A stretch of DNA of 63,714 nucleotides, taken from a virus (Duplodnaviria; Heunggongvirae; Uroviricota; Caudoviricetes). The stretch is taken from IMG/VR virus record IMGVR_UViG_3300038393_002131; one strand, 5' to 3'. Positions 2,329 through 40,786 of the stretch are shown here, in pieces. Position numbers and translations under genes: made by a program. How positions within the stretch are numbered: the first letter of the stretch is position 1; the number at the start of each line of letters is the position of its first letter. The notes beneath the pieces are model-generated. The model was not told where the DNA came from. It ran no database searches and saw only the letters and a list, made by a program, of their open reading frames with translations.

Positions 2329-2631
2329 ATGCACACCGCACTCGTCAACGCCGCCCTCGCGGCCGCGCCGTACGCCAACCCCCTGCCCGACGCGCAGGCC
2401 CCCAGCTGGCTCAAGGTCGCCGCGATCGCCGGCCTCATCGTGTCCATCGCGAGCATCGTCCTGATGGTGTTCGGGCTCGGGCTCACGATGCGCGCCAAGA
2501 AGGGCGACCTCAAGGGCGCCGCCCGCTCCTCCGGCGTGGCCGGCATCGGCCTGTTCTGGATCGTCCTCGGCGTCACCGGCGTCGCCCTCGGCGTCGTCTC
2601 CGGCTCCGTCAGCTTCTTCGTCAACGGCTGA
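2329..2631 (+). CDS. Small two-TM protein, VirB2/TrbC pilin-like
   Basis: Two hydrophobic helices, 100 aa, AAGGA SD, first gene of the VirB4 operon. Confidence 0.6.
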   Translation: MHTALVNAALAAAPYANPLPDAQAPSWLKVAAIAGLIVSIASIVLMVFGLGLTMRAKKGDLKGAARSSGVAGIGLFWIVLGVTGVALGVVSGSVSFFVNG

Positions 2632-2639
2632 GGGCCAGC

Positions 2640-3155
2640 ATGGGACGCGTCAGCACCGACGACGCCGCGCGGCGGCAGGAGTTCCGGTGGCTCGGCACAC
2701 CTGAGGTGCCCACCCCGTTCGAGGCGCGCGGCAGCGCGTGGGGGCTCGGCATCGTGCTCACCGGCCTGTTCTCCGTCGTCGCCTACCTCGCCACCCCGTT
2801 CATGGCGCTGCTCCCGGCCCCGCACGTCATCACCTTCGCGGTCCACGCGGCCGTGGCCGTCGTCCTCGGACTGGCGGCCGCGATCCCCGTGGTGCGGTGG
2901 GTCGGCAAGCGCGTCGACCCGACCCGCCGCCTCCGCTACCACCGCCGTGTCCTCCTCGACGAGATCGCCGGCCACCGCGACATCGACGCCACCACCAGCA
3001 CCATCGTCGCGGCCACCGCGACCCCGCTCGGCAAGCGTCCCGAGCACGTCCGCACGACGTTCGTCCCGGTCATGTCCGGCACCCGCGACGCGCACATCAC
3101 CCAGGACGAGATCGACACCGACGAGCGAGCCATGCTCGCCATGACCAAGGACTGA
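2640..3155 (+). CDS. Membrane protein, VirB3/PrgI/TcpE-like
   Basis: Two TM segments; directly upstream of VirB4. Confidence 0.55.
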   Translation: MGRVSTDDAARRQEFRWLGTPEVPTPFEARGSAWGLGIVLTGLFSVVAYLATPFMALLPAPHVITFAVHAAVAVVLGLAAAIPVVRWVGKRVDPTRRLRYHRRVLLDEIAGHRDIDATTSTIVAATATPLGKRPEHVRTTFVPVMSGTRDAHITQDEIDTDERAMLAMTKD

Positions 3156-3160
3156 CACCC

Positions 3161-5836
3161 ATGGGACTGTTCCGCTCCCGCGGCCGCCACACCGCACCCT
3201 CCACCGACGAGCCGACCACCGCCGAGCAGGCGCTCGTCGACGAGGCCATCGACGGCCTCGACACCAACCTCGACCCGAGCCTGCCCTGGCACCGCAACGT
3301 CCTCGTCAAGGAGGACGGGACGTGGGCCTACTTCGTGCTCGGCCAGAACGACTACCTGTTCCGCACCCCGGATGACCGGGCCCGCGTCATGGGCTCGATC
3401 GCGCGGCGCCTCGCCGAACTCGAAGGCCTGCGCGTCTGGCTCCGCGGCACCACGGCCCCCACCGACCCGTCGGCGTGGGCCAAGCGCATCGCCTCCGAGC
3501 ACCCCGCCCCCGGCGAGCCGGTGCAGCTGCGGCAGAAGGTCGTCACGACCCGGCGCCCCGACCCGGAGGAGGGTCGCACGTTCGCCGACATGCTCACCGC
3601 GGCGCAGATCCGCCAGCACGAGCTCGACGCCCGCTCCGCGGCCACCGTCCTCGGTGTCCGGGTGTCCACGACCCGCCTCACCAGCGAGCAGATCCGGATG
3701 CTGTTCACCACCGACGAGCTGCCCGCCGGCATGTCCGGTGTCGACGAGGTGCGCCGCACCTTCGTGCGCGTCACCAAGGCTGTTGCGGGCAAGGGACTGG
3801 CCGGCGCCCCGATCAGCGAGTCCGCGCTCGGCTGGCTCATCCACGCCTCGACCGGCATGGGTGCGCCCGTCCCGCCTGCGCTGCTCACCCCGTTCGGCGC
3901 CGACGCGCACGGCGACCACGGGCAGGCGTTCACCGCGCCCGTCGTGCTCACCTCGAGCCCGTACGCCCTGACGACGCGGGTCCGCACCATCCGCCAGTCC
4001 CGCCTCTACGACAAGCACGTCGCCGTCGTGCACGCCACCACCCTCGCCGACCGCGACACCGACGACGCCTACCGGCTGCCGTGGCTGTCGTGGCCCAACG
4101 GCCTGCCGTACCCCGTCGAGTGGGTCGCGCAGTTCGACGTCATCGCCGCGCGTGACCTGCGCGCCGAGGCCACCTACAACCGCCGCAAGGCCACCAACAT
4201 CGCCGAGCACCACGCCGAGCACGGCGACCGGCCGTCCGCGACGATCATGCGCGGCATCGAGCGCGCCGGGGAGATCGAGGACGAGCTACAGATCCCCGAC
4301 AAGGCCATCGCCGACCGGGTGCACGGCGTCGTCATGTTCGCCCTCGTCGGCGGCACCGAGGACGAGGCGCTCGAGATCGCGCGCCGGTTCGAGTCCGACG
4401 CCGCCGAGCAGCAGGGCATCACCATCAGCCACGGCTACGCCCAGCAGCGGTCCCTCTCCGGGTTCTCCCCGATCGGGCGCCCGATCCCCGTCGACGGCCT
4501 GGACACGCAGATGAACCTCGTCACCCTCGCCACGTCGGTGCCGAACGCGTCGACCAGCTGCGGCGACGCCACCGGGTTCCTCGTCGGCCCGGTCGCCGGC
4601 GGCCGCGACGTCATGAAGTTCGACCCGCACGGCGGCTCGAAGCGGTCCAAGTCGAACTTCGTCGCCGTCGTCGGTGACCCCGGCTCGGGCAAGTCGAGCT
4701 TCCTCGGCGCGCTCCTCGATTGGGAGGCCACCCTCGGCATCCGTTCCATCGGGTTCGACCCGTCCGCGCAGTGGCAGCGTTTGTGCGACCTGCCCTGGCA
4801 GCGCGGGGACGCCCGCCACCTCGACCTGTTCTCGGCGCACGCCGGCCTGCTCGTGCCGTCGACGCTCATCGTCGAGCCGAACCGCCACGACTACGAGTCC
4901 GACGAGACGTTCCGCTCGGCGGTCGCCGAGGCCGCGGCCGAGCGCAAGGACCTCATGGTCGATGTGCTCCGCGACCTGCTGCCCCCGGCCATGATCGCCA
5001 ACGACACCGGCGGCCGGATCGCCGCCGGGCTGGACCGAGCGGTCAACCTCGTCGGCGGCGACTACGGCGCCGACCCGTGGGAGGTCGTGGCCCGGCTCAA
5101 GGAGTCCAACGACGAGAACGTCCGCTACGCCGCCGAGGCACTCGAGGACGCCGCGCAGATGAAGCACGGCAGCCTCATGTTCCCGCCGCGCAACCGCGAC
5201 GTCGACGACGCCGCTGTCGAGCGCACCCTCAACTCGGCGACGCTGACGATCATCACCATGAAGGGCCTGACGCTCCCGCCGAAGGACAACCCGAACCGGG
5301 CCGAGTGGGACCGCAACCAGCGGGCCGCGCTGCCGCTGCTCAAGCTCGGCGCCCGGCTCGCCAACCGCGTCATGTACGCCGACAAGGCGCCGAAGATGAT
5401 CGCGCACGACGAGGCCGGCATCTCCACCGCGGGCGGCAACAGCATGGGCTCGCACATCACCCGGGCCGGGTTCGACTCCCGCAAGTGGAACGCGCTCGTG
5501 GCCGTCGCCAGCCAGAACCCGTCCACGCTGGCCGACCTGAACCGCGAGTTCGAGAACCTCGTCGGGGCCGCGTTCATCGGCCGCATGGACCGCAAGGCCG
5601 CCGTCGGCGCGCTGCCGCTGCTCCGGCTCGAAGGCGACCAGGGCCACGAGTGGACGATCTCCGACCTCGAGCAGGGCGAGTTCCTCGTGCGTGACTGGCT
5701 CGGCCGCGTCCGCAAGGTCGCCGTCGACCGCGGCTGGTGGGACCACGACCTGCTCGCAGCCCTCGACACCAACCCGCACGGCGAGAACACCGCCGAGGAC
5801 CGCGGCGCGGACCTGTTCGAGCAGAGGAGCGCGTGA
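3161..5836 (+). CDS. virB4: VirB4-like conjugative ATPase
   Basis: Walker A GDPGSGKS, Walker B-like MIAHDEAG, RKWNALVAVASQNP, GEFLVRDWLGRVRKVAVD; 891 aa from ATG3161. Confidence 0.85.
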   Translation: MGLFRSRGRHTAPSTDEPTTAEQALVDEAIDGLDTNLDPSLPWHRNVLVKEDGTWAYFVLGQNDYLFRTPDDRARVMGSIARRLAELEGLRVWLRGTTAPTDPSAWAKRIASEHPAPGEPVQLRQKVVTTRRPDPEEGRTFADMLTAAQIRQHELDARSAATVLGVRVSTTRLTSEQIRMLFTTDELPAGMSGVDEVRRTFVRVTKAVAGKGLAGAPISESALGWLIHASTGMGAPVPPALLTPFGADAHGDHGQAFTAPVVLTSSPYALTTRVRTIRQSRLYDKHVAVVHATTLADRDTDDAYRLPWLSWPNGLPYPVEWVAQFDVIAARDLRAEATYNRRKATNIAEHHAEHGDRPSATIMRGIERAGEIEDELQIPDKAIADRVHGVVMFALVGGTEDEALEIARRFESDAAEQQGITISHGYAQQRSLSGFSPIGRPIPVDGLDTQMNLVTLATSVPNASTSCGDATGFLVGPVAGGRDVMKFDPHGGSKRSKSNFVAVVGDPGSGKSSFLGALLDWEATLGIRSIGFDPSAQWQRLCDLPWQRGDARHLDLFSAHAGLLVPSTLIVEPNRHDYESDETFRSAVAEAAAERKDLMVDVLRDLLPPAMIANDTGGRIAAGLDRAVNLVGGDYGADPWEVVARLKESNDENVRYAAEALEDAAQMKHGSLMFPPRNRDVDDAAVERTLNSATLTIITMKGLTLPPKDNPNRAEWDRNQRAALPLLKLGARLANRVMYADKAPKMIAHDEAGISTAGGNSMGSHITRAGFDSRKWNALVAVASQNPSTLADLNREFENLVGAAFIGRMDRKAAVGALPLLRLEGDQGHEWTISDLEQGEFLVRDWLGRVRKVAVDRGWWDHDLLAALDTNPHGENTAEDRGADLFEQRSA

Positions 5837-7833
5837 CCGTGAAGCGCATCATCCGGGGCCGCGGCCTCGCCCAGCTGGTCGCGGCGCTGCTCGTCGCCAT
5901 GGTCGCGATCTGCGTGTCGAGCGTCGGCGCGACCGCGCAGCCCGCGGTGGCGACGATCGACGTGCCGACCGGGCAGGACTGCCTCAACCGGCCGGTCGTC
6001 GGCTCACCGACCGGCGGCATCGCGGGGTCGCTCGACGCGGGCCCGGCCAAGCCGCTCACCGGTGACCCGTTCAAGAAGGCGCCCGCCGGGCAGCCGCAGC
6101 CCACCATCTACGACGTCTACGGCTACGCCGGGCTCGCGCTGCTCGCCTACGACCCCGGGTGTGCGTCGGCGTCCGTCGGGCACATGTTCGGCAACCTCGG
6201 CATGTCCGTCGCCACGACGCACGTCGCGGTGACGGCGTGGCTGTACCGCACCGTCATGAGCCCGGGGTTCGGCGCGATCCTGAACCCGGTGCAGTCCCTC
6301 ATGCAGAAGGCGTGGGGGGAGCGGCTGTTCATCCCGCTCATCGGCATCGCGGTCGGGCTCACCGGCCTGTACTTCGTGCTGCGGGCCCGACGCGGCAACC
6401 TCGCCGAGGCGGGCACACAGTCGGCCAAGACCGGCCTCATCGTGCTCGTGGCCGCCGCCGCGGTGATCTACCCGCTGCTCATCGGCCCCGCGATCGACAA
6501 GGCCCTCACCGGCGGCATCGGCACCGTCAACGAGCTCGCCTCCGGCGTCGAGTCGCGCGACACCCCGGACCTGATCGCTGCGAACCTGCACGAGGCCGCC
6601 CTCTACAACCAGTGGCTCTCCTCGACGTTCGGCACCAGCGACGGCGCCCTCAACCAGAAGGTCGCCGCGGAGTACGGCCCGCGGCTGTTCAATGACTCCG
6701 CCCTGACCCGCGCCGAGGCCCGCCAGATCGAGCAGGACCCGTCGAAGGCCGAGGACATCGTCAACGGCAAGGTCGACGACTACGTCGATGCCGCCAACGA
6801 GATCAAGGACAAGTACCCGACCGTCTACGCGTACGTGGCCGGCAACCACGGCGACACGGCGTTCGGCGCCGGGATCACCGCATGGTTCGCTGCCGCCGTC
6901 GGCACGGCGTTCCTGATCTACGCCCTGACGAAGCTGGCCCTCGCCATGGTCATCATCCGGCTCGCGGTCGCGCTGTTCCCCGGGCTCGCGCTCCTCGCAC
7001 AGCACCCGAAGGGCCACAAGTACGGGATGAAGGTCCTGAACTACTCGTGGACCGCGATCGTGACCGCGTTCTTCTACGGCGCGGCCGCCGTGACCTTCGT
7101 CGTCATCGCGATCCGCAACGTCCTCGACCCCATGTCGACGCTGAACATGTGGGCCCGGCTCGCCGTGCTGGCGCTGCTGACCCTCGGCATGTTCGTCGTC
7201 GCACACAAGATCGGCCTGGCGGACGAGATGCGCAAGGCCCGCGCCCTGTGGGACGGGAAGAAGCGGCGCGTCGTCGCCACGGAGATCGCCCCCGAGGTCC
7301 AGCCGCAGACCGCCGACGACATGCTGCGGCCGCAGCCGGCCGTCGCCAGTGCGCCGACGAGCCCGCCCGCCGAGTCGTTCATGAGCACCGCCCGCCCGCA
7401 GCCGGAGGGCCCGGCCGGGGGAGGGGCCGCCGGTCTGACGCGGACCGTGTTCACGCCCAAGACGGCGCCCATCGACATCGGAGACGTGACGGCCACCCCG
7501 ACAACCCCGGCCGCGAAGGGCGCGATCATGCAGGGCGCGGCTCAGGGTGCCGCCGCCAATGCGGCCGGTGTCGTTGCAGTGACCGCCATCACCGGCGGCA
7601 CAGCGACCGGCCCGATGATCGCCGCGGCCGCTGCCAAGGGTGCGGCCGCCGGCGGGGCCACCACCGCCATCTCGAGGACCCGCGGCCCGGCCAAGGCGGT
7701 CGACCCGTCGGAGGTGTGGAGCCCGGAGAAGGGCAGCCCAGCCCCCGGCCCGTCCACCGCCCGCTCGACCATCAGCGACGGCCAGCGCGTCTACAACATC
7801 TACACGCCCACCACCTCGGGAGCCGCGAAGTGA
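5833..7833 (+). CDS. VirB6/TcpH-like polytopic conjugation membrane protein
   Basis: Signal-like N-term, several TM helices, Ala/Pro/Thr-rich tail; GTGA overlap with virB4. Confidence 0.7.
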   Translation: MTVKRIIRGRGLAQLVAALLVAMVAICVSSVGATAQPAVATIDVPTGQDCLNRPVVGSPTGGIAGSLDAGPAKPLTGDPFKKAPAGQPQPTIYDVYGYAGLALLAYDPGCASASVGHMFGNLGMSVATTHVAVTAWLYRTVMSPGFGAILNPVQSLMQKAWGERLFIPLIGIAVGLTGLYFVLRARRGNLAEAGTQSAKTGLIVLVAAAAVIYPLLIGPAIDKALTGGIGTVNELASGVESRDTPDLIAANLHEAALYNQWLSSTFGTSDGALNQKVAAEYGPRLFNDSALTRAEARQIEQDPSKAEDIVNGKVDDYVDAANEIKDKYPTVYAYVAGNHGDTAFGAGITAWFAAAVGTAFLIYALTKLALAMVIIRLAVALFPGLALLAQHPKGHKYGMKVLNYSWTAIVTAFFYGAAAVTFVVIAIRNVLDPMSTLNMWARLAVLALLTLGMFVVAHKIGLADEMRKARALWDGKKRRVVATEIAPEVQPQTADDMLRPQPAVASAPTSPPAESFMSTARPQPEGPAGGGAAGLTRTVFTPKTAPIDIGDVTATPTTPAAKGAIMQGAAQGAAANAAGVVAVTAITGGTATGPMIAAAAAKGAAAGGATTAISRTRGPAKAVDPSEVWSPEKGSPAPGPSTARSTISDGQRVYNIYTPTTSGAAK

Positions 7834-8552
7834 AGGTCCTGTCCAAGCTCGCCCGCATCGCTCAGGGCCAGCAGCAGCAGAAGTCGTCGATCCGCACCAA
7901 GCGCGCCAACCGGATCATCCAGTGGGTGCTCTGGTCGCCGCGCAACGCCCTCATCGCCGGCGTGAGCGTCGGCGCCGTCCTCGCCGTCGGCGTCACCGTG
8001 TGGCTGACACAGACGATCTACGACTACCAGCTGCGCGAGTACGAGGCGGCGCAGCAGGCCGCGACCGCGTCCGCCACGCCCGGCGTCGGTGACTACTCGA
8101 GGTTCGGGCTGTCCCGGGCCGACGCCACCACGGCCCCCACGTCGACGACGACGCCCCCGGCCCCGACGACGAGCACCGGCACCCCGACCCCGGCCGCCAC
8201 CGTCACCACGGCCCCGAAGCCCGTCGGCGCCGAGGCCCAGGCGCAGCAGAAGGCCGAGGCGTTCATCGGGGCGTGGCTCGCCGGGCCGAAGGCCGCCAGC
8301 CAGCAGGCGTGGCTCGACGGGCTCGCCCCGCACGTCGCCCCCGAACTGCTCGACCTGTTCAAGCTCACCGACCGGTCCAAGATCCCCACCGGCACCCGCA
8401 TCACCGGCATGACGTCAGTGACCGTGCCCGGCACCGGCACCGCCCACGTGTCGGCGACCATGGCCGGCCGCGGCGTCCTCGGCGTCGTGCTCGAGGCCGA
8501 CCAGACCGGCGCGTGGAAGGTCGTCGACATCGCCCCGGAGGACCACGAGTGA
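7830..8552 (+). CDS. Bitopic conjugation protein (VirB8-like position)
   Basis: Single TM, Thr/Pro linker, C-terminal AEAFIGAW...WKVVDI domain; GTGA overlap. Confidence 0.55.
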   Translation: MKVLSKLARIAQGQQQQKSSIRTKRANRIIQWVLWSPRNALIAGVSVGAVLAVGVTVWLTQTIYDYQLREYEAAQQAATASATPGVGDYSRFGLSRADATTAPTSTTTPPAPTTSTGTPTPAATVTTAPKPVGAEAQAQQKAEAFIGAWLAGPKAASQQAWLDGLAPHVAPELLDLFKLTDRSKIPTGTRITGMTSVTVPGTGTAHVSATMAGRGVLGVVLEADQTGAWKVVDIAPEDHE

Positions 8553-9634
8553 AGAAGCTCCTCGTCGCGGGGGTCGCCGCCGTCCTGACGGCGGTGGCCC
8601 TCGTGAGCGGCGTGATCGTGCTGCTCACCGGGCAGCAGGCCAACGTCGCCGCGCAGCGCGCCGACGGCGGCGTGTGCATCGTGCCGGCGTCCGGGTCGCA
8701 GCCGCTCCCGCCGTCGCAGGCCCGCGACCGGAACGCGTCGACGTGGATCGCGGTCGGCCGCGCCAAGGGCGTCCCACCCCGCGGCATCGTCATCGGCCTC
8801 GCCGTCATCCTCGTCGAGTCCAACGGGCTCAACCTCGCCTCGGAGAAGGTCCCCGAGTCGAAGCGGTACCCGAACGACGGGGTCGCGCCCGGGGACCACC
8901 TGTCCATCGGCACCGCCCAGCAGCAGGTCGGCATGGGCTGGTTCGACACCGTCGAGCAGGGGATGAGGGTCGACGTCCAGGCGGCCGCGTTCTACTCCGC
9001 CCTCGCCAACGTCAACGGCTGGCAGGTCATGTCGGTCTCCGGCGCCGCGCAGGCCGTGCAGCGGTCAGCGTTCCCGTCCCGGTACGGGCAGCGCGAAGCC
9101 GACGCGACGAGCCTGTACCACCGCCTCGCCTCGAGCGCGGGCAACGCCGACGTCGTCCCGGCCGTCGACACGAGCACCGGCATCTGCCAAGAGGCCGACA
9201 CCGTCCCGATCTCCGTGTCCGGCCGGTGGGCCAACCCGCTCGCCCCCGCGCACTACGTCCTCACGTCGCCGTTCGGGCCGCGGATCGACCCGGTGCTCGG
9301 CATTCCGAAGCCGCACAAGGGCCAGGACCTCGGCACCGACGCCGGCACGCCGATCAAGGCCGTCTGTGACGGCGTCGTGAAGCTCGCCGGCTGGGACTCG
9401 TGGGGCGGCGGCAACATGACGACCCTCGACTGCGGCGGCGACATCGTCATCAAGCTCATGCACCAGTCGAAGATCCTCACCACGACCGGCGCCCGCGTCG
9501 AGGCCGGTCAGGTCATCGGCCTCGTCGGCACGACCGGCAATAGCACCGGCAACCACCTGCACGAGCAGGTCGAGTTCAAGGGCAAGCCCATCGACCCGGT
9601 CCCGTTCATGCGGGACCGCGGCGTGCCGCTGTAG
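8549..9634 (+). CDS. Conjugative cell-wall hydrolase: lysozyme-like domain + M23 peptidase
   Basis: TM anchor; VILVESNG...SIGTAQQ...AAQAVQRSAFP lysozyme-like region; M23 motifs HKGQD and GNSTGNHLHEQV. Confidence 0.85.
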   Translation: MKKLLVAGVAAVLTAVALVSGVIVLLTGQQANVAAQRADGGVCIVPASGSQPLPPSQARDRNASTWIAVGRAKGVPPRGIVIGLAVILVESNGLNLASEKVPESKRYPNDGVAPGDHLSIGTAQQQVGMGWFDTVEQGMRVDVQAAAFYSALANVNGWQVMSVSGAAQAVQRSAFPSRYGQREADATSLYHRLASSAGNADVVPAVDTSTGICQEADTVPISVSGRWANPLAPAHYVLTSPFGPRIDPVLGIPKPHKGQDLGTDAGTPIKAVCDGVVKLAGWDSWGGGNMTTLDCGGDIVIKLMHQSKILTTTGARVEAGQVIGLVGTTGNSTGNHLHEQVEFKGKPIDPVPFMRDRGVPL

Positions 9635-9673
9635 AACAGGCAGAAGTGCCACCCGTAACGGCATACTTCACCC

Positions 9674-10087
9674 ATGACCCCTGACGGAGCGACGCTGACG
9701 GCCTCGGACGAGCGAATGCACACCGCTTGCCTCGCGGTGGCGCACGCGCTGCGTCCGGGGCCGTTCCGTGCGATCGCCCGCCAGGCGACGTGGCCCACGC
9801 CCGACAAGCACGCCGACGTCGCCCACATCATCGAGACGCGGATGCGGGAGAAGTCCGACCTCGCCCGCACCGGCCCGTGGTGGGCCGCCTCCGGTCCGAC
9901 GATGACGGCCGCACTGATGTCCGTGCGCGAGCTCGAGGAGGACCTCGCGTCCTACCTCATCGGGGCCGCGCTCCAAGCCACCATCACCGCAGGAGCAGAC
10001 CTCGTGTCCGACAGCATTCTCCGGCTCGCTGAGTCGGCCGCCTCGTGGATCGACGGCCGCAACCACGCCGGGGGTGCGCACGCGTGA
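9674..10087 (+). CDS. Hypothetical protein
   Basis: GC3-biased ORF; CATACT 6 nt before ATG suggests a leaderless start. Confidence 0.6.
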   Translation: MTPDGATLTASDERMHTACLAVAHALRPGPFRAIARQATWPTPDKHADVAHIIETRMREKSDLARTGPWWAASGPTMTAALMSVRELEEDLASYLIGAALQATITAGADLVSDSILRLAESAASWIDGRNHAGGAHA

Positions 10088-10566
10088 GCAACGTCGAGGA
10101 CGCCATCGCCGACGTCCGAGCCGCCTGCCAGCGGGTCGTGACCGCCGAGGACGCGCAGATCAAGACCCGCGACGCCCGCGACGCCGCGTTCGCGGCCGAC
10201 TGGCCCCAGCTGCACCCGCTCGGGTTCAAGCTCATCGCCGCGCAGGTCGGCGACTCGATCAGCGCGTCGACGCTGCGCTCGATGGCTCGTGAGCTCAAGC
10301 CGCGGCCGCCGCGCGGGCCCCGGTTCTCCCCGTCGATCAGCGCCGAGCAGCAGGCCGCGCTCCGGCGTCTGCGGGAGGCGTGCGTGGCGTGGGCGGCCGC
10401 CGAACAGGAGTACAACGACGCCCTCAACGCCCGCTACTACGCCATCCGCGCGGCGTGGCCCGTCCTGGCCGCGCTGGGGCCGGCGAAGATCGCCCGTTCC
10501 GTCGGTGACCGACTTGTGGGAGAATCGACCATCAGGCAGGCCACAGGGGACCTGCGACGCGCTTAG
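10084..10566 (+). CDS. Hypothetical protein with two tandem helix + HTH-like repeats
   Basis: ARDAAFAADWP..LGFKLIAAQVG..ISASTLR vs ARYYAIRAAWP..LGPAKIARSVG..VGESTIR; GTGA overlap. Confidence 0.6.
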   Translation: MSNVEDAIADVRAACQRVVTAEDAQIKTRDARDAAFAADWPQLHPLGFKLIAAQVGDSISASTLRSMARELKPRPPRGPRFSPSISAEQQAALRRLREACVAWAAAEQEYNDALNARYYAIRAAWPVLAALGPAKIARSVGDRLVGESTIRQATGDLRRA

Positions 10567-10572
10567 GCAGGG

Positions 10573-10812
10573 GTGAGCACGATGTTCCGCAGGCGGTTCG
10601 AGCAGGGCGACGTCGTCAAGGTCACGGTCGACCTGCGCCCCGGCCGGTTCTCGGCCCCCGTCGTGCTCGCCGAGACGCGCGGCATCGTGCAGCAGCCGTC
10701 CGGGTTCATGAAGGACCCGATCGTCGAGTTCAGCAACGGCCGCGTCATGGTCGTCCCGGTTCGGCACCTCGAGCACGAGCGTGTGGGGATCCTCGAGCGC
10801 GTGTTCGGCTGA
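10573..10812 (+). CDS. Small SH3-like beta-barrel protein
   Basis: FEQGDVVKVTVD...RGIVQQ...IVEFSNGRVMVVPVRHLE. Confidence 0.55.
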   Translation: MSTMFRRRFEQGDVVKVTVDLRPGRFSAPVVLAETRGIVQQPSGFMKDPIVEFSNGRVMVVPVRHLEHERVGILERVFG

Positions 10813-10832
10813 CCCCGCCCGACTTCTTCGAC

Positions 10833-10863
10833 GAGGCCCCGGTCCATCACGGATCGGGGCCTC
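10833..10863 (+). terminator. Hairpin after the 10573-10812 gene
   Basis: GAGGCCCCG ... CGGGGCCTC, 9-bp outer stem. Confidence 0.45.
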
Positions 10864-10951
10864 GCTGTGTCTCAGGGTGCGCAGTAGTGAAAACCGGATA
10901 CGATGCCACTATTCGTGTAGCGACCGAACGACGACACAGGTAGGGGACACC

Positions 10952-11185
10952 ATGACTGCGGGGGACAAGCGCACCCGCCAGCAGGCCCGCATCGAGCGGC
11001 GCCGTGCCCGGGTGCTGGAAGCGACCACACCAGCCGAGCAACTCGTCCGCGCGTTCGACCTGCTCCGCGCCGCCCTGTCGCGCCGCGCCAAGACCGACCC
11101 CGCCGGCGCCGACAAGGTCCGCCGGTTCATGCTCGACCAGCTGCTCACCGCCGCCGAGAAGGTCGAGAAGGGGTGGACCCCGTGA
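10952..11185 (+). CDS. Small basic helical hypothetical protein
   Basis: MTAGDKRTRQQ...; AGGGG SD; first gene of the FtsK operon. Confidence 0.6.
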   Translation: MTAGDKRTRQQARIERRRARVLEATTPAEQLVRAFDLLRAALSRRAKTDPAGADKVRRFMLDQLLTAAEKVEKGWTP

Positions 11186-11610
11186 CCGTCGCGGCCTACG
11201 CCCTCCTCGCTGCCGGCGCCGCGCTGCTGCTGTTCACCCGCTGGCGCATCACCAAGACGACCGGCGTCGTCCTCTGCTACGTCGCCGGCGTCACCCTCGC
11301 CGCGCACATGCCCGGCGGCACCGCCCACAACGTCGTCACCGTGACGCAGCGGTTCCTCCTCGGCTGGGAAGCCGTCCCCACCATCCTGACCGTGATCGTC
11401 CTCGTCGTCGTGGCATGGCACGTCCTGTCCGGCAGCATGAACCTCCTGACCGGGGTGCTCGCCCTGGCGCTGCCCGCGCTGCTGCCCTACCTCGCCACCG
11501 GGCCCCTGCACGAGCTGTGGGCGTGGGCGACCGGCACCGTCGCCGACACATGGCACGACGTCAGCAAGAACGTCCGGCCCGTGCTCGAGAACGCCAAGCC
11601 CCTCCGATGA
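11182..11610 (+). CDS. Multi-TM membrane protein (Spd-like position upstream of TraB)
   Basis: About four hydrophobic helices; GTGA/ATGA overlaps on both sides. Confidence 0.65.
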   Translation: MTVAAYALLAAGAALLLFTRWRITKTTGVVLCYVAGVTLAAHMPGGTAHNVVTVTQRFLLGWEAVPTILTVIVLVVVAWHVLSGSMNLLTGVLALALPALLPYLATGPLHELWAWATGTVADTWHDVSKNVRPVLENAKPLR

Positions 11611-14478: not shown

Positions 14479-14496
14479 CGCGTGTGGTCGTGCTCG

Positions 14497-16647: not shown

Positions 16648-16673
16648 TCCCGTTCCTCCCCATCGTTGATGTC

Positions 16674-29900: not shown

Positions 29901-32900
29901 CGGAGGCGGCCTTGGCGGCGAACGCCTCACGCTTGCGGCGGGTGTCGGCCGCGCCCGAGCCGGCCAGGTCGCTCTTGCGGGCGACGAGGACCTTGGCGTT
30001 CGGGAACGCCTTGATGAACTCGCGGGTGTACTGCTCGAGCATGTGGTTGGGCACGACGTGCGCCGGCTTGTTGGCGATGCCGAGCTGGCGCAGCTTCATC
30101 GACGAGGCCTGCATGACGAGCGTCTTGCCGAAGCCCACGTCGTGCGCGAGCAGCGTCGTCGGCTGGGTGATCGCGCGGGAGACGCCGGCGTGCTGGTGCG
30201 GCCGCAGCGAGAACGCGTCGGACAGGCCGTGCACGGTGACCCGGCGGGCGCTGTAGTCGGCGTCCGCGAGGAAGTTGAACATCTCGTTGTAGCGGCCGAC
30301 GAGCCGGTCGCGGCGGTCCTCGTCGGACCACACCCACTGCCGGAACTCCTCGAGCATCTGCTTGGCCTTGGTGAGGGCCTCGCGGGTCTTGGCGTGGTCG
30401 GTGTAGGTCTTGCCGTCGACGGTGTACGTGACCTTGATCGGCGACTGCTGGATCACCGACTGGAAGATCTTGCCGGCGCCCCACAGGACCTTCGGGCGGC
30501 CTTCCTTCGTCGTGTCGGTGTCGGACAGCACCGACCACTTCTCGGCCGCGAACGAGGTCACGGGGACCTCGACGTCCCAGCCGGACCCGCCGCCGGGGTT
30601 GAGCACGAGCGCGCCGGGCGCCTCGAACTTCTCCCGGGCGAACGCCGTCAGGTCCTCCTCGCTCATCCATGCGGCACCGGGGCGCACGTCGATCTCGTGG
30701 GACTGAATGTCGGCCGGGACGCGCGCCTCGAGGAAGGTGACGTTCTTCTCGAACGACGGGTCGTGCTCAGCCAGGGCGCGCGCGACCTTGAGCTTGCCGC
30801 GGACGTCGCCGGCGCCGTACGCCGTGACGTCGACGTACGTGTCGAGCTCCGGGTCCTTGAACACGTGCCCGTCGACGGCCTTGAGCGCGGCGTCCTCGTC
30901 GGGCAGGCCCATGAGGGCGGCGATCTTGGAGAGGTTGACCTCGCCGGACTGGTCCTGCGACAGCATGACGGCGTCGACCGGGTCGTCGGTGCGGGTGATG
31001 ACCTTGGCCGGGGAGACGGTGCGGCCCTCGAAGATCGCGGCCTTCTTCGCGATGCCCGTCTCGGGGTTGTAGTCCTCGAGCGCGCCGGTGGTGATGAAGC
31101 CCATGCGGTCGGACTTCCACACGGCCGGGATGCCCGCGATGGCGCGGCGCTTGGCGTTCGGGTCGTCGGCCTTCGGCTCGGAGAACCGGACGCGGTTGAT
31201 CGGGCCGAACGTGCCGACGTAGTGGTCGTACTCGTCGTTGAGCTGCTTGCGGAGCTCGGCCATGAGCGGGGTGTCCTCGTCGTGGGACACCTCCTCCTCC
31301 ATGAGCGCGGTGCGCAGGTCGCGCAGGCGCATCAGGCCGAGGACCTCCTCGGTGCGGGACTTCGGCACCGTCAGCTCGACCGGCTTGCCGTTCTCGAGGA
31401 TGGTGAAGCCCTCGCCGTTGGGCGACAGGTCGATGTAGCCCTCGTCCTTGCCGTCGATGCTCTTGCGGCGGCGGATCGCGTCGTCGACGGTCGTTGGCAG
31501 GCCCTCGCGGGGCGTCATGCCGAGGCGCTGCTTGTGGGCGTCGGCGGCGATGTTGCGCAGGGCGTTCCGCAGCTGGCCGGGCAGCGCGTCGAGGTCCTTG
31601 TTGACGACGGTCAGCGCGTCGTCGGCGCCGTACATCGACTTGCCGACCTCGATGTCACCGAGGACGTTCTCGGGGTGGCGGGCGAAGTACTCGTTGACCG
31701 TCCAGTCCTTGCCGGACTTGGTCTTGATCTTCTTGCGGCCGACGAACTTCTCGCCGCGGGGACGCTCACCGTCGAGGCGGCGACGGAACATCAGAATGTC
31801 CGTGACGACGTCGGTGCCGGCCGAGGCCTTGTGGGCGCCGCCGGGCAGGCGGACCGCGCCGAGGAAGTCACCGAGCGACGCCATCTCGTCGCGGCCCTTC
31901 TTCGACGTCTTGTCCATCGAGCCGGACGAGGTCATCACCATGACGAGGCCGCCCGGGCGGACCGCGCGCATCGCCTTCGTGATGAAGTGGTCGTGCATGT
32001 TGAGCCCGGCCTTGTTGCCGCCGGTCGGGTCGTGCAGGACGGCCTCGTGGAACGGCACGTTGCCGATGACGGCGTCCAGGCTGTTCGGCTTGAGGTCGAC
32101 GTTCTGGAACCCGGCCGCCTCGATGTGGGCGTTCGGGTGGAGGAACTGCGACATGGCGGCGGTCGTCGGGTCGAGCTCGACACCGACCATCCGGGCACCC
32201 TTGGGCGCCATGCCGATGAAGTTGCCGATGCCGGAGCCCGGCTCGAGCACCGTGCCGTCCTCGAACCCGAGGTCCTGCATCGCCTCCCACATCGACTGCG
32301 TCATGTGGGCGGCCGTGTAGTGGGCGTTCAGCGTCGTGCGCGACGCGGCCGCGGCCTCCTTCTGGTCAGGCAGCAGCTCGGCGAGCTCGGCGCGCTCCTT
32401 GGCGAACTCCGGCTTGTCCTCGTCGAACATCTCCGGCAGCGCACCCCACGAACCCCACTTCGCGAGGACCTTGCGCTCGTCCTCGGTCGCGGGCCGGTTC
32501 TCGGCCTGCAGGGTGCGCAGCACGCGCAGCGCGTCGAGGTTGGCGCGGGCACGGGCCTTCTTCCCGCTGGGGGAGAGGTCCTCCTGGCTCGTGGCCTGCC
32601 ACGGGCCAGGGACGTCCGCGCCGGCGTCCTTGAACGACGGCGCGGCACCGTTGGGAGCCTCGGGGGTGGGCTCCGCAGCGGCCGCTACGGCGTCGGCGTC
32701 TCCGCGGGCGGCGTCGTCGGCTCGTCCACCGGCAGCTCGTTCTCCCGGGCGTCCGGCTCCGCTGGCAGGAACACCTCCTGCTCGAGCACCTCGGCCTCCG
32801 CCGTCCTGAACGCCCACAGCATCAGGTCGCGGCGCTCCTGCTCGGTCGTCGGCTGCGGCTTCTCCGCGGCCGCCAGCTGCTCCGCGCGGCGCTGCACCAG

Positions 32901-35745: not shown

Positions 35746-37965
35746 TCAACGCGCGACCTCGAGATCTGTCACAGCGCCCCGGGCGATGCCCGCGGCGACG
35801 GTCCCGGCGCGGAACGCGTACAGCGACTTGACCTCTGCGACAACGTCGCTCATGGACGTCGTCGCGGAGGCGGCGGTGTCGATCGTGGTGGCGACGTCGA
35901 CGAGGAACTCGCGCATCTGCTCGGCGGCGCCAGCGGCCGCGATGAACGCCGCGGAGTCGCTGCCCGCGTCGGCGAGGAGCGGCTGCACGGTGTTGACCGT
36001 CTCGAGCTCCCACCGGTCGACGTCGACGACCTTGCTGACGTCGATGGCGTCGTCACCGCCGCGGGTGTCCGACGGGCCGTCCGGGGTCCAGAACGGGGTG
36101 CCCTTGCGTGTCCGGGGCGACTCGAGGCGGGCGGTGATGATGCCGACCTGCCGCGACAGGGCGGCCGCCATCGCAGCGGCGACGCTCATCTCGGCGACCT
36201 CGGCCGACTTGCCCTCGGTGCGGGCCCGGCGCAGCGCGTCGGCGCCGTCGCCCTCGGTGTAGCCGCCCATGTCGGCGTCGGCCTCGGCGACGGCTGCGGC
36301 GCCGTCACCGGGGGTGCTGCCCTCACCGGAGCGGACCTCCGCGACAGCGGCCGCGCCGTCACCGGTGTCGCCCTCGACGTCGTCGACTGCGTCGATCTCC
36401 TCCTGCGTGGGCGGACCCCACGCCTCAGCGTCCGCAGCGTCACCCTCCGGGGCGTCGTCGAGCGCAGCCGGGACCTCACCGGCGGCGATCGCGGCCTCGA
36501 GTCGGGCGACCGCGTCAGCGCCGTCACCCTCGGCGCCAGGCTCGGCCGGTGCGCCACCGTCGGGGCCGCCGTCCGGGCCGGCCGGGGGCTCGCCGTCGGG
36601 GCCCGGGGGCATGCCGCCACCGTCGGGGCCAGCCTCGCCGCCCATGCCGAGCCCGAGGGCCTGCTCGTCGCCGGGCTGGCCGGGGATCGGCGCCTTGGAC
36701 GGGTTCGTCCACAGCGCGCGCGTCTGCGGGACGTTGAGCATGGGCAGGTTGGCGAGGTTGCGGTACTCGTCGATCGAGCGGAGGCCCTGGTTGACCTCGG
36801 TGCGGGCCTCCTCGCGGTCGCGGCGCTTCGGCAGCTGCAGGACCTCGATGTGGGAGGTGTCGAGGTAGGGCTCCCAGCCGCCGTACGGCAGGTCCTCCTC
36901 GAACGCCTCGGCGACGAGCTCCATGTAGGTGGGGAGCACCTGCGTCCAGTAGTTGTAGAGCTCGGCGTCGGCATTCTCGAACGAGCGGCCGGACGCGTTG
37001 CCGAGCATCGACTCGCCGATGCCGAACGCGGCGAGGATCTCGACCTTGGCGTTGGTGGAGGCCTCGCCGTAGCTCATGTCGCGGGGCTTGGTGGCCGTGT
37101 CGACGTAGTTGAGCCCGCCGGGGCCGGTGCCGATGACGGTCATGGCGCCGGCGTGATGCGCACCCGGGAGGAACTTCCGCTCGATGCGCTCCATCTCCTG
37201 ATCGGACAGGGAGTCGGTGTCGACGCCGAGGACGCCGGAGGGGCGCGCGTCGCGCTTGATGAACGACGAGTTGTAGATGCGGGTCAGGAAGTCGAGCTCG
37301 ATCGACAGGCCCGCGGCCTCGAGCGGCGTCGTGCCGGAGTAGGCGTCGGTCGGGTGCGGCTGGCGGATCCATCTGATGTGCTGCGGCTGGATCTCGCGGA
37401 CGGTGCCGTCGCGGCGGGTGAACTCGAACCACTTGATGTAGTCGTAGCCGTTGTCGGCCGGGATCGGGCGGGTGCGCTGCGGGTCGAGCAGGTCCAGGCG
37501 CACGATGTTGCCGGCGCGGGACTTGGTCACCTCGACGAACACGCCACGCTTGGAGAGGAGCAGCTGGGCGACGAGCCGCTTCTTGAACAGCTTGGCCTTC
37601 TCGAGCTGGTTGGCCTTGACGTTCAGCACCCGGTACAGCGGGTGGTCCTCGAGCGTCTCCTCCCGCTCGGTGCCGCGGTCACGGCCAGCCTTGAACTTGA
37701 GGCGGGACAGGTCGCCGGAGATGAGCTCGACGCACCGGTAGACCCAGATCGCGCGCTCGTACCCCTCGCTGATGACGGTGTCCATGTCCCACGCGTCGGC
37801 GCGGCCCTCTGTGCCATAGAGGCCGTTGCCGATGCGGGTCGTCGACAGGTACGCCGCGCCAGACACCGGTCCGCCGATGCTCAGCGACTTCTCCTCGACG
37901 CCGTCCGTGACGTCGAGCGCGCCCGTGCTGTAGCCGCCGCGCAGGGCAGGCAGGAACTTCCTCAC
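35746..37965 (-). CDS. HK97-family portal protein with long acidic C-terminal extension
   Basis: WVYRCVELISGDLSRL, HPLYRVLN..N, QLLLSKRGVF, IRQPHPTDAYSGTTPLEAA, ILAAFGIGESMLG, RSIDEYRNLANLP. GTG37965 overlaps upstream stop. Confidence 0.9.
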   Translation of the reverse strand: MRKFLPALRGGYSTGALDVTDGVEEKSLSIGGPVSGAAYLSTTRIGNGLYGTEGRADAWDMDTVISEGYERAIWVYRCVELISGDLSRLKFKAGRDRGTEREETLEDHPLYRVLNVKANQLEKAKLFKKRLVAQLLLSKRGVFVEVTKSRAGNIVRLDLLDPQRTRPIPADNGYDYIKWFEFTRRDGTVREIQPQHIRWIRQPHPTDAYSGTTPLEAAGLSIELDFLTRIYNSSFIKRDARPSGVLGVDTDSLSDQEMERIERKFLPGAHHAGAMTVIGTGPGGLNYVDTATKPRDMSYGEASTNAKVEILAAFGIGESMLGNASGRSFENADAELYNYWTQVLPTYMELVAEAFEEDLPYGGWEPYLDTSHIEVLQLPKRRDREEARTEVNQGLRSIDEYRNLANLPMLNVPQTRALWTNPSKAPIPGQPGDEQALGLGMGGEAGPDGGGMPPGPDGEPPAGPDGGPDGGAPAEPGAEGDGADAVARLEAAIAAGEVPAALDDAPEGDAADAEAWGPPTQEEIDAVDDVEGDTGDGAAAVAEVRSGEGSTPGDGAAAVAEADADMGGYTEGDGADALRRARTEGKSAEVAEMSVAAAMAAALSRQVGIITARLESPRTRKGTPFWTPDGPSDTRGGDDAIDVSKVVDVDRWELETVNTVQPLLADAGSDSAAFIAAAGAAEQMREFLVDVATTIDTAASATTSMSDVVAEVKSLYAFRAGTVAAGIARGAVTDLEVAR

Positions 37966-38495: not shown

Positions 38496-38496
38496 C

Positions 38497-38868
38497 TCAG
38501 GCCTCCCCGCGGATGACGGCGTCGATGCCGCGGCGGTTGATCCGCGGCGCGGGCACGGGGATCGTGACGACGCCAGGGGGCAGGTTGTGCACCTTGCGCT
38601 TGGCGCGGACGGACTGGTCGCCGCCGATGAGGTGCTCGTTGTTGATCTTCGCGGCGCACGGCAGGTCGGCGACCTCGTCGAACGCGCGCTTGCAGTGCTC
38701 GCAGTACGTCTCGAGCGCCTCCACACGCTCGGACTCCTTCACGCGGTACATGCCGCGGAAGTCGGCCGCCTTGGCGGTGGCGTGGTCGACGCGGATCATC
38801 GCGGCGATGACCCACTGGTGGGTCAGGTCCTTCGGTGCCTGATTCGGCTCCGACGTTTCGAGGTGCAC
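38497..38868 (-). CDS. Hypothetical phage protein (CxxC)
   Basis: GGGAG SD before GTG38868; YCEHCKR..PCAAKINNEHLIGG. Confidence 0.7.
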   Translation of the reverse strand: MHLETSEPNQAPKDLTHQWVIAAMIRVDHATAKAADFRGMYRVKESERVEALETYCEHCKRAFDEVADLPCAAKINNEHLIGGDQSVRAKRKVHNLPPGVVTIPVPAPRINRRGIDAVIRGEA

Positions 38869-38980
38869 GGGCTCTCCCGGGGGTTGGTGTCTTGTGCCGG
38901 GGACGCTTGCCCGGCTGGGGGAGTGGGACGCCCGTCTGCTACCCCTCGCAACGTGTAACGAATGGGACGCGTGTTGTGTG

Positions 38981-40786
38981 TCACGCACCGGCGATGATCC
39001 CTCTGCGGGGCTTGGTGCGGACCGGCTCCGGCTCGTAGAACGCGAGCAGCAGCGCCTCGGCCCGGTCGGGGGAGGGCCGGCCGCGTTTCTTCATGCTGGC
39101 CTTGGACTCGACGACGATGAGCCCGCCGCTGTTGTTGCCGAAGTTCGGCACGGACAGCTGCGTGGCGGCGTTGCCGCGGTTCTTGTCGGCGGCCGCGTTG
39201 TCGACGATGCGGATGCGGATGCGGCCCTCGCCGGTCTTGGGGTCGGGCTGCAGCAGGAACCGGCCGCCGAGCCACATCTCGTCACGCTTGCGGTTGGGGC
39301 GCATCTCGGCGGACTCGTCGTCCTCCTCGGGCCGCTCGGCCACGTTGACGGCCACGATGACGGCGCCGTGCTTCCCGGCCTTGCCCCACTCCTTGAGCAT
39401 GCCGACGACACCCCAGCCGACACCGATGGTGTCGACCTTGACGCGGACCTGCGACTTGGACCCGATCGCGCGGGCCAGCTTCTCGGCGGCGATGATGTGC
39501 TCGAGCGCCACCGTGGCGACGGCGACGCTGTTGCTGTTGGCGGACCCGGAGGAGACGTGACGCTGCGACACGACGTCGCCGACGGCCCGGTAGATCGCGA
39601 ACTCGTCGCCACCGTCGGCCGCGACGTCGATGCCGAGGCGCACCCACGCGCCCTTCTTGACGGTGAACGTCTCGTCCTCGCCCTCGAGGTCAAGGTCGCA
39701 CGGGCGGACGTAGTCGGGGCCCTCCGGGTCCTCCACCGCGCGGGCCAGGTCGACCCACGTCGAGGGGATGATGCGGGCGCCGGCGTCCTTGGGGAACCGG
39801 GCGTGCACCTTGGCGACGACGTACGGGTGGTCCTCGCCGTAGCCGGCGATGGTGCGGTTGACCCAGTCCTCATCGGGCAGGTGCTTGGACAGCGGGTGCG
39901 GGTCGGCGGCCGCCGGGCACTCCTTGCAGACGCCGGTGACCTCACCGGTGAGCTGCGGCGAGCTCGTCGACGGCATGTGGATGGTGACGGTGCCGGCCGT
40001 CTCCCCGGCGTAGCCCTCCTCGGACAGGCCCTCGAACCACGACCCGGGGTCGTCGGTGGCGGGGTTGCCGATGGCGAGCATGCGGGCGTCACCGGTGAGG
40101 AGGTTGTTGGTGCCCTCACCGACCATCTTGGACATACCACCGGCCTCGTCGACCACGAGGAGCAGCGAGATCGCGTGGATACCCTGCATCGCGGACTCGT
40201 CGTTCTCCGGCGCGGAGAAGCCGTAGGCCACGAGGACGTCGTTGCCGTACTCGTCCGGGGCCTTCCACTGCACGGTGTCGCACGTGCCGGGCAGGTTGCC
40301 CTTCGCGACTGCCTTGCGGATGTGCGGCCACAGCTGGTTGCGGACCTGCCGGTAGCGGGGCGCGGTCGTGACGACGAGCCCGATGCCGATGGGCCGGGTC
40401 GCGATGAACCACGCGGTGAGCCGACCTGCCAGGTGAGTCTTGCCCAGCCCGAACCCGGCCGGGACGGCGACCCGCTTGTTGACGGCGACGGCGTCGAGCA
40501 CCTCACGCTGCTTGGACCAGACCGTCTCGCCGAGGACGTCCTCGACGAACCCGGACGGGGCGTCGTGCCACAGGCCGTAGAGCGCGCCGGTCTCCCGCTT
40601 CGTCTCCTGCAACACGTACTGCATCTCGCGCTGGTCGAGGGTCGCCAGGACCCGCCGACGCGCGGGCACGGGCGCGTCGAGCAGGTTCCTCACGAGCGAC
40701 TTGGCCTCGCCGGACACCACGCCGGGCGCGCTGGTGCGCACTCCGTCATGGGCCGCCGAGACGGTCGCGGCCAGCTGGGGACTCAC
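38981..40786 (-). CDS. terL: Terminase large subunit
   Basis: Walker A AGFGLGKT, Walker B LVVDEAGG, LAIGNP, nuclease LGIDVAADGGD, VDTIGVGWGV, SPDRAEAL. Start uncertain (frame open to 40855). Confidence 0.9.
   Translation of the reverse strand: MSPQLAATVSAAHDGVRTSAPGVVSGEAKSLVRNLLDAPVPARRRVLATLDQREMQYVLQETKRETGALYGLWHDAPSGFVEDVLGETVWSKQREVLDAVAVNKRVAVPAGFGLGKTHLAGRLTAWFIATRPIGIGLVVTTAPRYRQVRNQLWPHIRKAVAKGNLPGTCDTVQWKAPDEYGNDVLVAYGFSAPENDESAMQGIHAISLLLVVDEAGGMSKMVGEGTNNLLTGDARMLAIGNPATDDPGSWFEGLSEEGYAGETAGTVTIHMPSTSSPQLTGEVTGVCKECPAAADPHPLSKHLPDEDWVNRTIAGYGEDHPYVVAKVHARFPKDAGARIIPSTWVDLARAVEDPEGPDYVRPCDLDLEGEDETFTVKKGAWVRLGIDVAADGGDEFAIYRAVGDVVSQRHVSSGSANSNSVAVATVALEHIIAAEKLARAIGSKSQVRVKVDTIGVGWGVVGMLKEWGKAGKHGAVIVAVNVAERPEEDDESAEMRPNRKRDEMWLGGRFLLQPDPKTGEGRIRIRIVDNAAADKNRGNAATQLSVPNFGNNSGGLIVVESKASMKKRGRPSPDRAEALLLAFYEPEPVRTKPRRGIIAGA

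Follow-up and report, generated by a model that had tools for sequence, protein, structure and literature searches.

Streptomyces plasmids are transferred as double-stranded DNA, and a TraB hexamer binds repeats in clt, beside tra (PMC3583192, citing Reuther 2006 and Vogelmann 2011). Conjugal transfer of plasmid SLP2 requires a membrane cluster of six genes, among them homologues of the cmd cluster, whose ATPase, CmdB, is VirB4-like (PMC2782261). In Streptomyces coelicolor, cmdABCDEF is chromosomal, acts in sporulation and chromosome segregation, and does not substitute for the SLP2 transfer genes (PMC2782261). Transfer systems of the T4SS (type IV secretion system) type and of the FtsK type have been treated as two separate mechanisms in actinobacteria (PMC3429521), and phage-plasmids have been described as moving between cells in virions (PMC12282955). 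According to the papers that cite it, the Streptomyces plasmid-phage pZL12 has ParA and ParB, and its conjugal transfer needs a major, FtsK-like tra gene and adjacent genes (Zhong et al., 2010, cited in PMC3583192 and PMC4487206). Here we describe a 63,714-nt stretch of viral DNA (IMG/VR record IMGVR_UViG_3300038393_002131; the whole stretch is called the window below) in which a VirB4-type gene cassette and a TraB-type FtsK gene stand next to phage head genes.

A preliminary description of this DNA had pictured a conjugation module joined tail-to-tail to a phage head-packaging module, in one replicon that could spread both as virions and by cell contact. Our analysis suggests that the element is a phage carrying an intact plasmid-style transfer gene set, and that it may spread by cell contact besides virions.

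Results

A transfer block converges on the head genes of a soil phage

The G+C content of the window is 71%, and shadow frames crowd raw lists of its open reading frames (ORFs). Genes were therefore re-called by the G+C content of third codon positions (GC3 frame analysis), after which the gene content and coordinates of the preliminary description held almost to the base. On the plus strand, positions 137–14407 hold three phage-type accessory genes followed by two transfer operons (2329–10812 and 10952–14407). This block is convergent with minus-strand genes for a protease, a 5913-aa polyvalent protein, a portal and a terminase (Table 1), and its base composition is the same as that of the rest of the window. 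The DNA is of soil origin; the junction stretch 13200–15700 is present in 11 soil or rhizosphere metagenome runs.

The proteins of the head block match those of Streptomyces phage Gilgamesh (MN234216), with a portal ~43–50% identical, a terminase and protease as close as listed in Table 1, and gp44-like and gp50-like proteins that match as well. They also match seven Streptomyces plasmids of 125–133 kb, whose portal proteins are 50–54% identical. Gilgamesh is a cultured 129-kb phage with ParA and ParB, and the three plasmids whose records were examined are circular and carry both of these genes; sequenced relatives in the Gilgamesh family persist as ~130-kb circular plasmids in Streptomyces. 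The window is best explained as the right-hand half of a member of this family, an uncultured actinobacterial phage from soil with a genome of ~127 kb. The protease gene is immediately followed by the capsid gene in Gilgamesh and plasmid CP070374; in the window, it is followed by the 14-kb plus-strand block. Gilgamesh and three sister plasmids (four of four) each have an FtsK-like gene, the product of which is 27–28% identical to the TraB-like protein of the window.

The junction is present in other metagenomes and in divergent relatives

The gap between the transfer and head blocks is 89 bp. Contigs of two further soil metagenomes bridge it. One, of 1662 nt (run X4), spans 13881–15542 with zero differences; the other, of 4244 nt (run X5), spans 13472–17715 with 25 differences and so comes from a separate strain. 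A chimeric assembly at ~14.4 kb, which the preliminary description had named as fatal to its claim of one contiguous replicon, is contradicted by these contigs, and the claim itself is borne out by them.

The closest VirB4 homologues are 35–51% identical to that of the window, and the gene neighbourhoods of nine were examined. Three of these relatives, the like of which the preliminary description had proposed to look for, share the junction. L025, a soil contig from JGI, has a capsid gene (minus strand), a collinear transfer block (plus strand), a 13-bp hairpin analogous to that of the window, and a convergent S78 protease gene (minus strand); its proteins are identical to those of the window at 41% (VirB4), 40% (VirB6-like), 57% (M23), 41% (TraB) and 59% (YdjM) of positions, and its capsid protein shares 59% identity with gp53 of Gilgamesh. 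The same layout, with capsid (minus), cassette, FtsK-gamma and YdjM (plus) and S78 protease (minus), is found in L028 and L029. L029 is a second contig of the metagenome that yielded L025 and L028 comes from another sample, so that the three relatives represent two other metagenomes. Their VirB4 proteins are only 38–42% identical to that of the window; the persistence of one junction at this distance argues that the association is old and stable. In a quick tree of 33 VirB4 proteins, the window and L025 fall into one seven-row clade with 98% support, phage and non-phage contexts are interleaved, and actinomycete plasmid proteins form an outgroup clade.

We found no tRNA gene, insertion sequence (IS) or integrase near the junction, and no att repeats or replication gene in or beside the block, in agreement with the earlier statement that no att, IS or host genes separate the two blocks there. 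The association of transfer block and head module is thus conserved across deep divergence, without att or integrase scars. This layout and the lack of scars lead us to reject not only a chimera but also the recent, independent insertion of an integrative and conjugative element (ICE) that the preliminary description had held out as a ground for refutation. The transfer genes are intact, with no frameshifts, and among the 39 natural variants listed in coding DNA (38 of them in the plus-strand block) 25 are synonymous and the 14 others conservative. An exact-match search for the junction in IMG/VR and the species-genome collection found none, nor did a pattern-based search of the same collections for close VirB4 relatives.

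Between the ydjM stop codon and the protease gene lie three direct copies of ATGCGCGCG, the sole three plus-strand copies in the window, and a hairpin whose position and perfect pairing had been given exactly in the preliminary description. The 101-nt stretch 14400–14500 around it folds with z = −6.06 against shuffled sequences. The hairpin, common to both converging operons, is read as a two-way terminator. It is a speculative suggestion that the ATGCGCGCG repeats are a candidate TraB binding site and cis-acting transfer site (clt).

Table 1. Features of the transfer and head blocks, in window coordinates (TM, transmembrane)
Feature	Position	Strand	Basis or remarks
Accessory genes: DUF5131 protein; Zn-ribbon protein; metallophosphoesterase	137-1261; 1254-1601; 1598-2170	+	Pfam DUF5131 1.3e-94, Metallophos_2; phrog_2045, phrog_547
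Predicted upstream control region of the T4SS-like operon	2171-2328	+	8-bp inverted repeat GACGGTTC / GAACCGTC, GACAC boxes
Small membrane protein, 100 aa, two TM helices	2329-2631	+	Hydropathy
Membrane protein, 171 aa, 2-3 TM helices, in VirB3 position just 5' of VirB4	2640-3155	+	Hydropathy; no family match
VirB4-like ATPase, 891 aa, Walker A GDPGSGKS intact	3161-5836	+	Pfam AAA_10; start fixed at 3161
VirB6/TrbL-like polytopic membrane protein, 666 aa, 6-8 TM helices	5833-7833	+	Topology; protein-atlas clusters
VirB8/TcpC-like bitopic protein, 240 aa: N-terminal TM helix, Pro/Thr linker, C-terminal NTF2-like domain	7830-8552	+	AlphaFold model
Membrane-anchored cell-wall hydrolase: TM helix, M23 peptidase domain	8549-9634	+	Pfam Peptidase_M23 1.2e-24
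Three small soluble proteins closing operon 1	9737-10087; 10084-10566; 10573-10812	+	Collinear homologues in L012, L025; no family match
Hairpin ending operon 1	10832-10864	+	Inverted repeat I16, 14 nt, 93% complementary
Two small genes before traB: 77-aa basic protein; 145-aa protein with three TM helices	10952-11185; 11173-11610	+	GC3 frame switches
TraB-type FtsK/SpoIIIE DNA translocase, 764 aa: three TM helices, Walker A GCTGAGKS, FtsK-gamma winged helix	11607-13901	+	NCBIfam, Pfam, PDB
YdjM-family (PF04307) membrane protein	13898-14407	+	Pfam YdjM 3.3e-10; ATGA overlap with traB
Three direct copies of ATGCGCGCG, 11-13 bp apart, between ydjM stop and hairpin	14407-14442	+	Repeat family D14
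Perfect 14-bp hairpin	14443-14456 / 14465-14478		Inverted repeat I13, 100% complementary
Prohead protease (S78) with a fused 2H phosphoesterase domain	14497-16512	-	Pfam and PHROG; ~49% identical to Gilgamesh gp52
Gilgamesh gp50 homologue	16895-17554	-	45% identity
Polyvalent protein, 5913 aa: methyltransferase, SNF2 helicase, UvrD/SF1 helicase domains	17905-35646	-	Pfam; ends match Gilgamesh gp48; ~5355-aa homologue on a plasmid
Portal	35746-37965	-	Pfam Phage_portal 9.1e-43
Large terminase subunit	38981-40786	-	phrog_2; 59% identical to Gilgamesh gp1

The first operon encodes a VirB4-type cassette

Most genes of the transfer block are joined by four-base start/stop overlaps. The VirB4-like ATPase matches Pfam AAA_10 at 1.5e-20 (74 bits against a cut-off of 27.5). 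Its NCBIfam matches, VirB4_plasma and TcpF, are weak (TcpF 1.7e-7, 29.5 bits against a cut-off of 1100). A PDB search with the single sequence was marginal (E 0.28), while a profile built from 22 homologues matched best, of all PDB entries, a VirB4 structure from Thermoanaerobacter (4AG5, 5.4e-8).

For the 666-aa protein, a language-model search of a protein atlas led to actinobacterial clusters named TrbL/VirB6 with a score of 0.93; together with its topology, this is a lead, not a proof, that the protein is VirB6-like. The AlphaFold model of the VirB8-like protein has a predicted local distance difference test (pLDDT) score of 80–94 across residues 134–237, which form the NTF2-like domain. 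Its top PDB matches include the VirB8-like proteins TraM (pIP501), PrgL (pCF10), TraE (pKM101) and TcpC (pCW3), at E 0.007–0.04 and mixed with generic NTF2 proteins, and its matches among AlphaFold DB clusters are generic NTF2/DUF4878 folds only. The M23 hydrolase is clearly assigned, and is 57–58% identical to its homologues in L012 and L025.

Pfam, PHROGs and NCBIfam gave no match for the two small membrane proteins at the start of the operon, the 666-aa protein or the small soluble proteins. The former two had been called ‘pilin-like’ and ‘VirB3-like’; both proteins exist, but these labels were based on size and topology alone. Homologues of the 100-aa protein open the cassette in L004, L007, L012 and L013, and the 171-aa protein is kept in L004, L007, L012, L013, L014 and L027.

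From the sequence and the motif listing we infer that positions 2171–2328 serve as promoter or control region for this operon. Neither transfer operon is preceded by the hairpin with AGCGTC in its loop that serves this phage's non-structural genes as leader cassette. A recurrent leader layout, with AGCGTC some 38–40 nt and GACAC some 21–26 nt ahead of the start codon, precedes the minus-strand genes that start at 38868, 51676, 54037 and 58669.

The second operon encodes a TraB-type translocase and a YdjM protein

The preliminary description had named an FtsK/TraB gene, and a gene of TraB type, for a 764-aa protein, is indeed present. The long ‘FtsK’ ORF from 11004 is an open shadow-frame artefact, and GC3 analysis puts two small genes in other frames before the TraB start at 11607. 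The first of these encodes the 77-aa basic protein, which is 42% identical to its L025 homologue.

The best family of the 764-aa protein is NCBIfam plasmid_TraB (7.8e-32), at 110 bits against a cut-off of 800, so that it is not an equivalog. Pfam FtsK_gamma matches at 7.2e-17, PDB matches are to FtsK motor and gamma domains, and SXT_TraD is reached only at E 0.056. The protein has both of the marks looked for in a Streptomyces TraB-type translocase, N-terminal TM helices and a C-terminal winged helix, and is 41% and 38.6% identical to its L025 and L013 counterparts, respectively.

A YdjM gene lies directly after, or close 3' of, the FtsK/TraB gene, often overlapping it, in all seven of the elements concerned (the window, L013, L016, L025, L027, L028 and L029), which include phage and plasmid-like contexts. 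As far as we searched, this FtsK/TraB–YdjM partnership is not described in the TraB literature.

Related cassettes occur in other phages, plasmids and chromosomes

A tblastn search with VirB4 against 50,697 phage records returned two Tn916-like matches, both in Firmicute prophages, and found the cassette in no record. Metagenomic contigs gave a wider picture. A 43-kb contig from SRR12404947, which holds L014 and L016, represents a phage with a capsid protein of phrog_777, 52% identical to the capsid proteins of Microbacterium phages. The genes of this phage lie on one strand in the order terminase, cassette, portal, MuF, phrog_859 protein, FtsK, YdjM, capsid, phrog_779 protein, major tail protein and head–tail adaptor, the transfer genes thus being interleaved with head genes on the late-gene strand. 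L027 is a phage of the same type, in which cassette, FtsK and YdjM are divergent from the head genes, and L004 has the order terminase, cassette, portal, MuF. L026 is phage-like, with RecT, YqaJ, WhiB and Tad3; its gene of the Tad3 (anti-Thoeris) family, at L026:16464–16868, directly follows the SLT hydrolase gene of the cassette and is followed by an IS605-type transposase pair.

L013 is plasmid-like, with ParA, a NikA-like gene and the FtsK–YdjM pair. L007 and L012 have chromosomal contexts; L007 is without TraB, and L012 has cellular genes upstream and ends before any FtsK gene could show. More distant cassettes, with VirB4 proteins 22–29% identical, are found on actinomycete plasmids beside a C40 hydrolase gene, and a Nonomuraea plasmid also has an annotated FtsK/SpoIIIE gene.

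The head block and other genes of the window

Virion genes inside the window are those for terminase, portal, protease and a tail-fibre protein. The fusion of S78 protease with a 2H (2'-5' RNA ligase/LigT-like) domain is common to Gilgamesh gp52 and to plasmid proteins annotated ‘2'-5' RNA ligase family’. The 5913-aa protein looks like a packaged ‘polyvalent’ protein. Giant homologues occupy the same place between portal and protease in Gilgamesh (gp48, 4624 aa) and in three plasmids (~5250–5400 aa). Three small genes lie between the portal and large terminase genes. The three accessory genes ahead of operon 1 are absent at the equivalent place in L025.

Further along the window, at 41576–43310, an Lsr2 gene and a gene for a 296-aa, Xer-sized tyrosine recombinase are divergent across a 457-bp AT-richer spacer; the arrangement would suit integration, or dimer resolution of the plasmid kind. 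Of genes for plasmid maintenance, the window has no more than these two. A tail-fibre or tailspike protein of 1333 aa, with a right-handed beta-helix and a glycine-rich C-terminal domain, is encoded away from the head block (43827–47828, minus strand) and had no match in Gilgamesh.

Discussion

By analogy with the Streptomyces TraB plasmids, the SLP2 cluster and pZL12, we propose a TraB-driven mechanism of transfer for a lineage in which a conserved two-operon module appears to separate the capsid gene from that of the prohead protease and to occupy the other strand from the late genes. In a lysogen or plasmid-carrying cell, a hexamer of the TraB-type FtsK would bind a cis site on the double-stranded phage genome, for which the ATGCGCGCG repeats are one candidate, and would pump this DNA, double-stranded and unprocessed, into an adjacent cell or hyphal compartment. 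The VirB4 ATPase and the VirB6-like and VirB8-like proteins would, with the M23 hydrolase, build the envelope passage and open the wall. Besides its virions, the phage would thus have cell contact as a second means of spreading. The parts of the module fit a DNA-transfer machine; that it moves DNA, what DNA it moves and when it is expressed are all things that we infer. We give contact-dependent transfer of the double-stranded phage genome by this module about an even chance.

Several observations weigh against such transfer. No VirB4 homologue was found in the closest named relatives, Gilgamesh and three sister plasmids, and the ATGCGCGCG repeats are not conserved at the L025 junction. No relaxase family match was obtained among the window genes of at least 300 aa scanned with Pfam, the window being half of the genome, and no VirD4/TcpA-type coupling protein was found among the window genes, the sole candidate being the FtsK-like protein with plasmid_TraB as its best family. 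The locus therefore falls outside the usual definition of a conjugative T4SS: of the components by which CONJScan/MacSyFinder defines one, VirB4 is present, and relaxase and coupling protein are not found within the window. The chromosomal paralogue cmdABCDEF works in sporulation, not in transfer (PMC2782261). Finally, related cassettes occur in phages with a Microbacterium-phage-like capsid, once co-oriented with the head genes, and in chromosomes without TraB, so that a role other than conjugation has still to be reckoned with.

Such a role would be that of an exapted membrane complex, serving envelope or septum remodelling, control of host development or of chromosome segregation, exclusion of other elements, or protein export. 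In addition to the same-clade cassettes of chromosomal settings (L007 without TraB; L012 ending before FtsK) and to a cmd cluster that affects sporulation and chromosome segregation and is no substitute for the SLP2 transfer genes (PMC2782261), the L014/L016 phage speaks for it, with its cassette between terminase and portal and its FtsK–YdjM pair between MuF and capsid, all co-oriented with the head genes. In the Gilgamesh-like lineage, however, the cassette is always accompanied by a TraB-type translocase with a DNA-binding gamma domain; moreover, the closest non-phage homologues lie on plasmids or plasmid-like contigs beside FtsK and ParA, and no secreted-effector candidate was seen. We consider an exapted complex unlikely, though the main rival of contact-dependent transfer. 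The block might also be a separate conjugative passenger, similar to an ICE or to its actinomycete counterpart (AICE), that was inserted into the phage and does not serve it. It lies on the strand opposite to the late genes and breaks the protease–capsid synteny of Gilgamesh and CP070374, Gilgamesh and three plasmids are without the cassette, and the interleaved contexts in the VirB4 tree show exchange between kinds of element. A passenger is nevertheless improbable, given that no integrase, att repeats, tRNA, IS or replication gene was found in or beside the block, that the insertion point is identical in L025, L028 and L029 at 38–42% VirB4 identity, that the natural variants show purifying selection, and that base composition matches the rest of the window.

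Two further explanations carry far less weight. Since the TraB-like protein weakly matches the PADLOC models HerA, mad8 and SspH, the block might be an anti-phage defence or counter-defence system built on HerA/FtsK-type ATPases; these matches do not reach beyond the P-loop motor that such ATPases share, no PADLOC model fits any of the other nine proteins, and the architecture is that of a monoderm T4SS, all of which makes this very improbable. An artificial joining of plasmid and phage at ~14.4 kb would be conceivable in a soil metagenome where two blocks converge at a GC-rich hairpin, but it is hardly credible when the junction is spanned in contigs of two further samples, 25 single-nucleotide polymorphisms marking one of these contigs, and three divergent relatives from two other metagenomes share it.

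Several unrelated actinobacterial phage lineages, namely Gilgamesh-like phages and phages with a phrog_777-type capsid that resemble Microbacterium and Mycobacterium phages, may each have acquired T4SS-like cassettes of a single clade, repeatedly and along with TraB/FtsK–YdjM, and set them within or beside their head modules, for virion-independent, direct passage of the genome between neighbouring cells or hyphal compartments. We put this forward as a tentative idea, possible rather than probable; if true, it would be a hitherto undescribed route by which viruses of bacteria spread.

Phages and conjugative elements are usually regarded as alternative vehicles of horizontal gene transfer. In the conserved module described here, a membrane apparatus of VirB4 type is combined with a pump of TraB type for double-stranded DNA, and the module is apparently a stable neighbour of the capsid gene in four or more divergent members of the lineage. 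Were it a transfer machine, these soil phages could spread without lysis and without a tail receptor, perhaps with a different host range, and models of gene flow and of phage and plasmid persistence in Streptomyces-rich soils would change; the module would also offer a tractable system in which to ask what a VirB4 cassette adds to TraB-driven transfer. Were its function another, it would be a clear case of a phage exapting conjugation machinery.

Comparison with known transfer systems

The preliminary description had likened the module to Gram-positive systems of the Tn916/pCW3 type; with no relaxase and no VirD4-type coupling protein found in the window, it is not of that type. It does have the minimal gene set of Tn916, ICEBs1 and the pCW3 (Tcp) system: an AAA_10 ATPase of the VirB4 family, a putative VirB6-like protein, a putative VirB8/TcpC-like protein with an NTF2 fold, a hydrolase for the cell wall and an ATPase of the FtsK superfamily. 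Unlike them, it has no relaxase and no TcpA/VirD4 coupling protein that we could find within the window, its FtsK-like protein carries a gamma domain and matches the TraB of Streptomyces, which moves double-stranded DNA, and its resemblance to TcpF is marginal. Cassettes of actinomycete plasmids (pSSFR2, a 199-kb Nonomuraea plasmid and Rhodococcus plasmids) are alike in gene order, with small membrane proteins, a VirB4-like ATPase, a ~700-aa polytopic protein, a ~190-aa protein and a wall hydrolase; in the Nonomuraea plasmid, the annotated FtsK/SpoIIIE gene lies directly 3' of the cassette. They differ in the low identity of VirB4 (22–29%), in having an NlpC/P60 hydrolase rather than M23, and in being without phage genes.

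The SLP2 cluster is likened to the window cassette by description, not by sequence comparison. The cmdABCDEF cluster, again by description, is similarly a co-transcribed cluster of membrane-protein genes that includes a VirB4-like ATPase and is paralogous to plasmid transfer genes, whereas its location is chromosomal and it is unlinked to TraB or phage genes.

Gilgamesh and its sister plasmids (CP070374, CP108441, CP107821 and others) resemble the window in terminase, portal, giant helicase–methylase protein, protease–2H fusion and FtsK-like gene, and in a genome size of ~127–133 kb. They differ from it in being without the VirB4 cassette, in having the capsid gene directly after the protease gene, and in carrying the FtsK-like gene elsewhere in the genome. 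In Gilgamesh, the only one in which this was checked, the FtsK-like gene has no YdjM partner, the adjoining gp9 not being YdjM-like.

The precedent of pZL12, invoked in the preliminary description, is a real one, its conjugal transfer needing the tra gene (PMC3583192). As in our proposal, it is a Streptomyces element that is both plasmid and phage, with tra-dependent transfer; compared by description, it differs in that the papers citing it name a tra gene and two neighbours and no VirB4/VirB6/VirB8 cassette. It was not among the portal matches and therefore belongs to another phage lineage. That a Streptomyces element can be both phage and conjugative plasmid is thus known already from pZL12. 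New, as far as we searched, would be the joining of a VirB4-type cassette to a TraB-type pump inside a phage, the conserved position of that cassette between capsid and protease genes in a Gilgamesh-like sub-lineage, and the finding of cassettes from that same clade amid head genes in a second type of phage.

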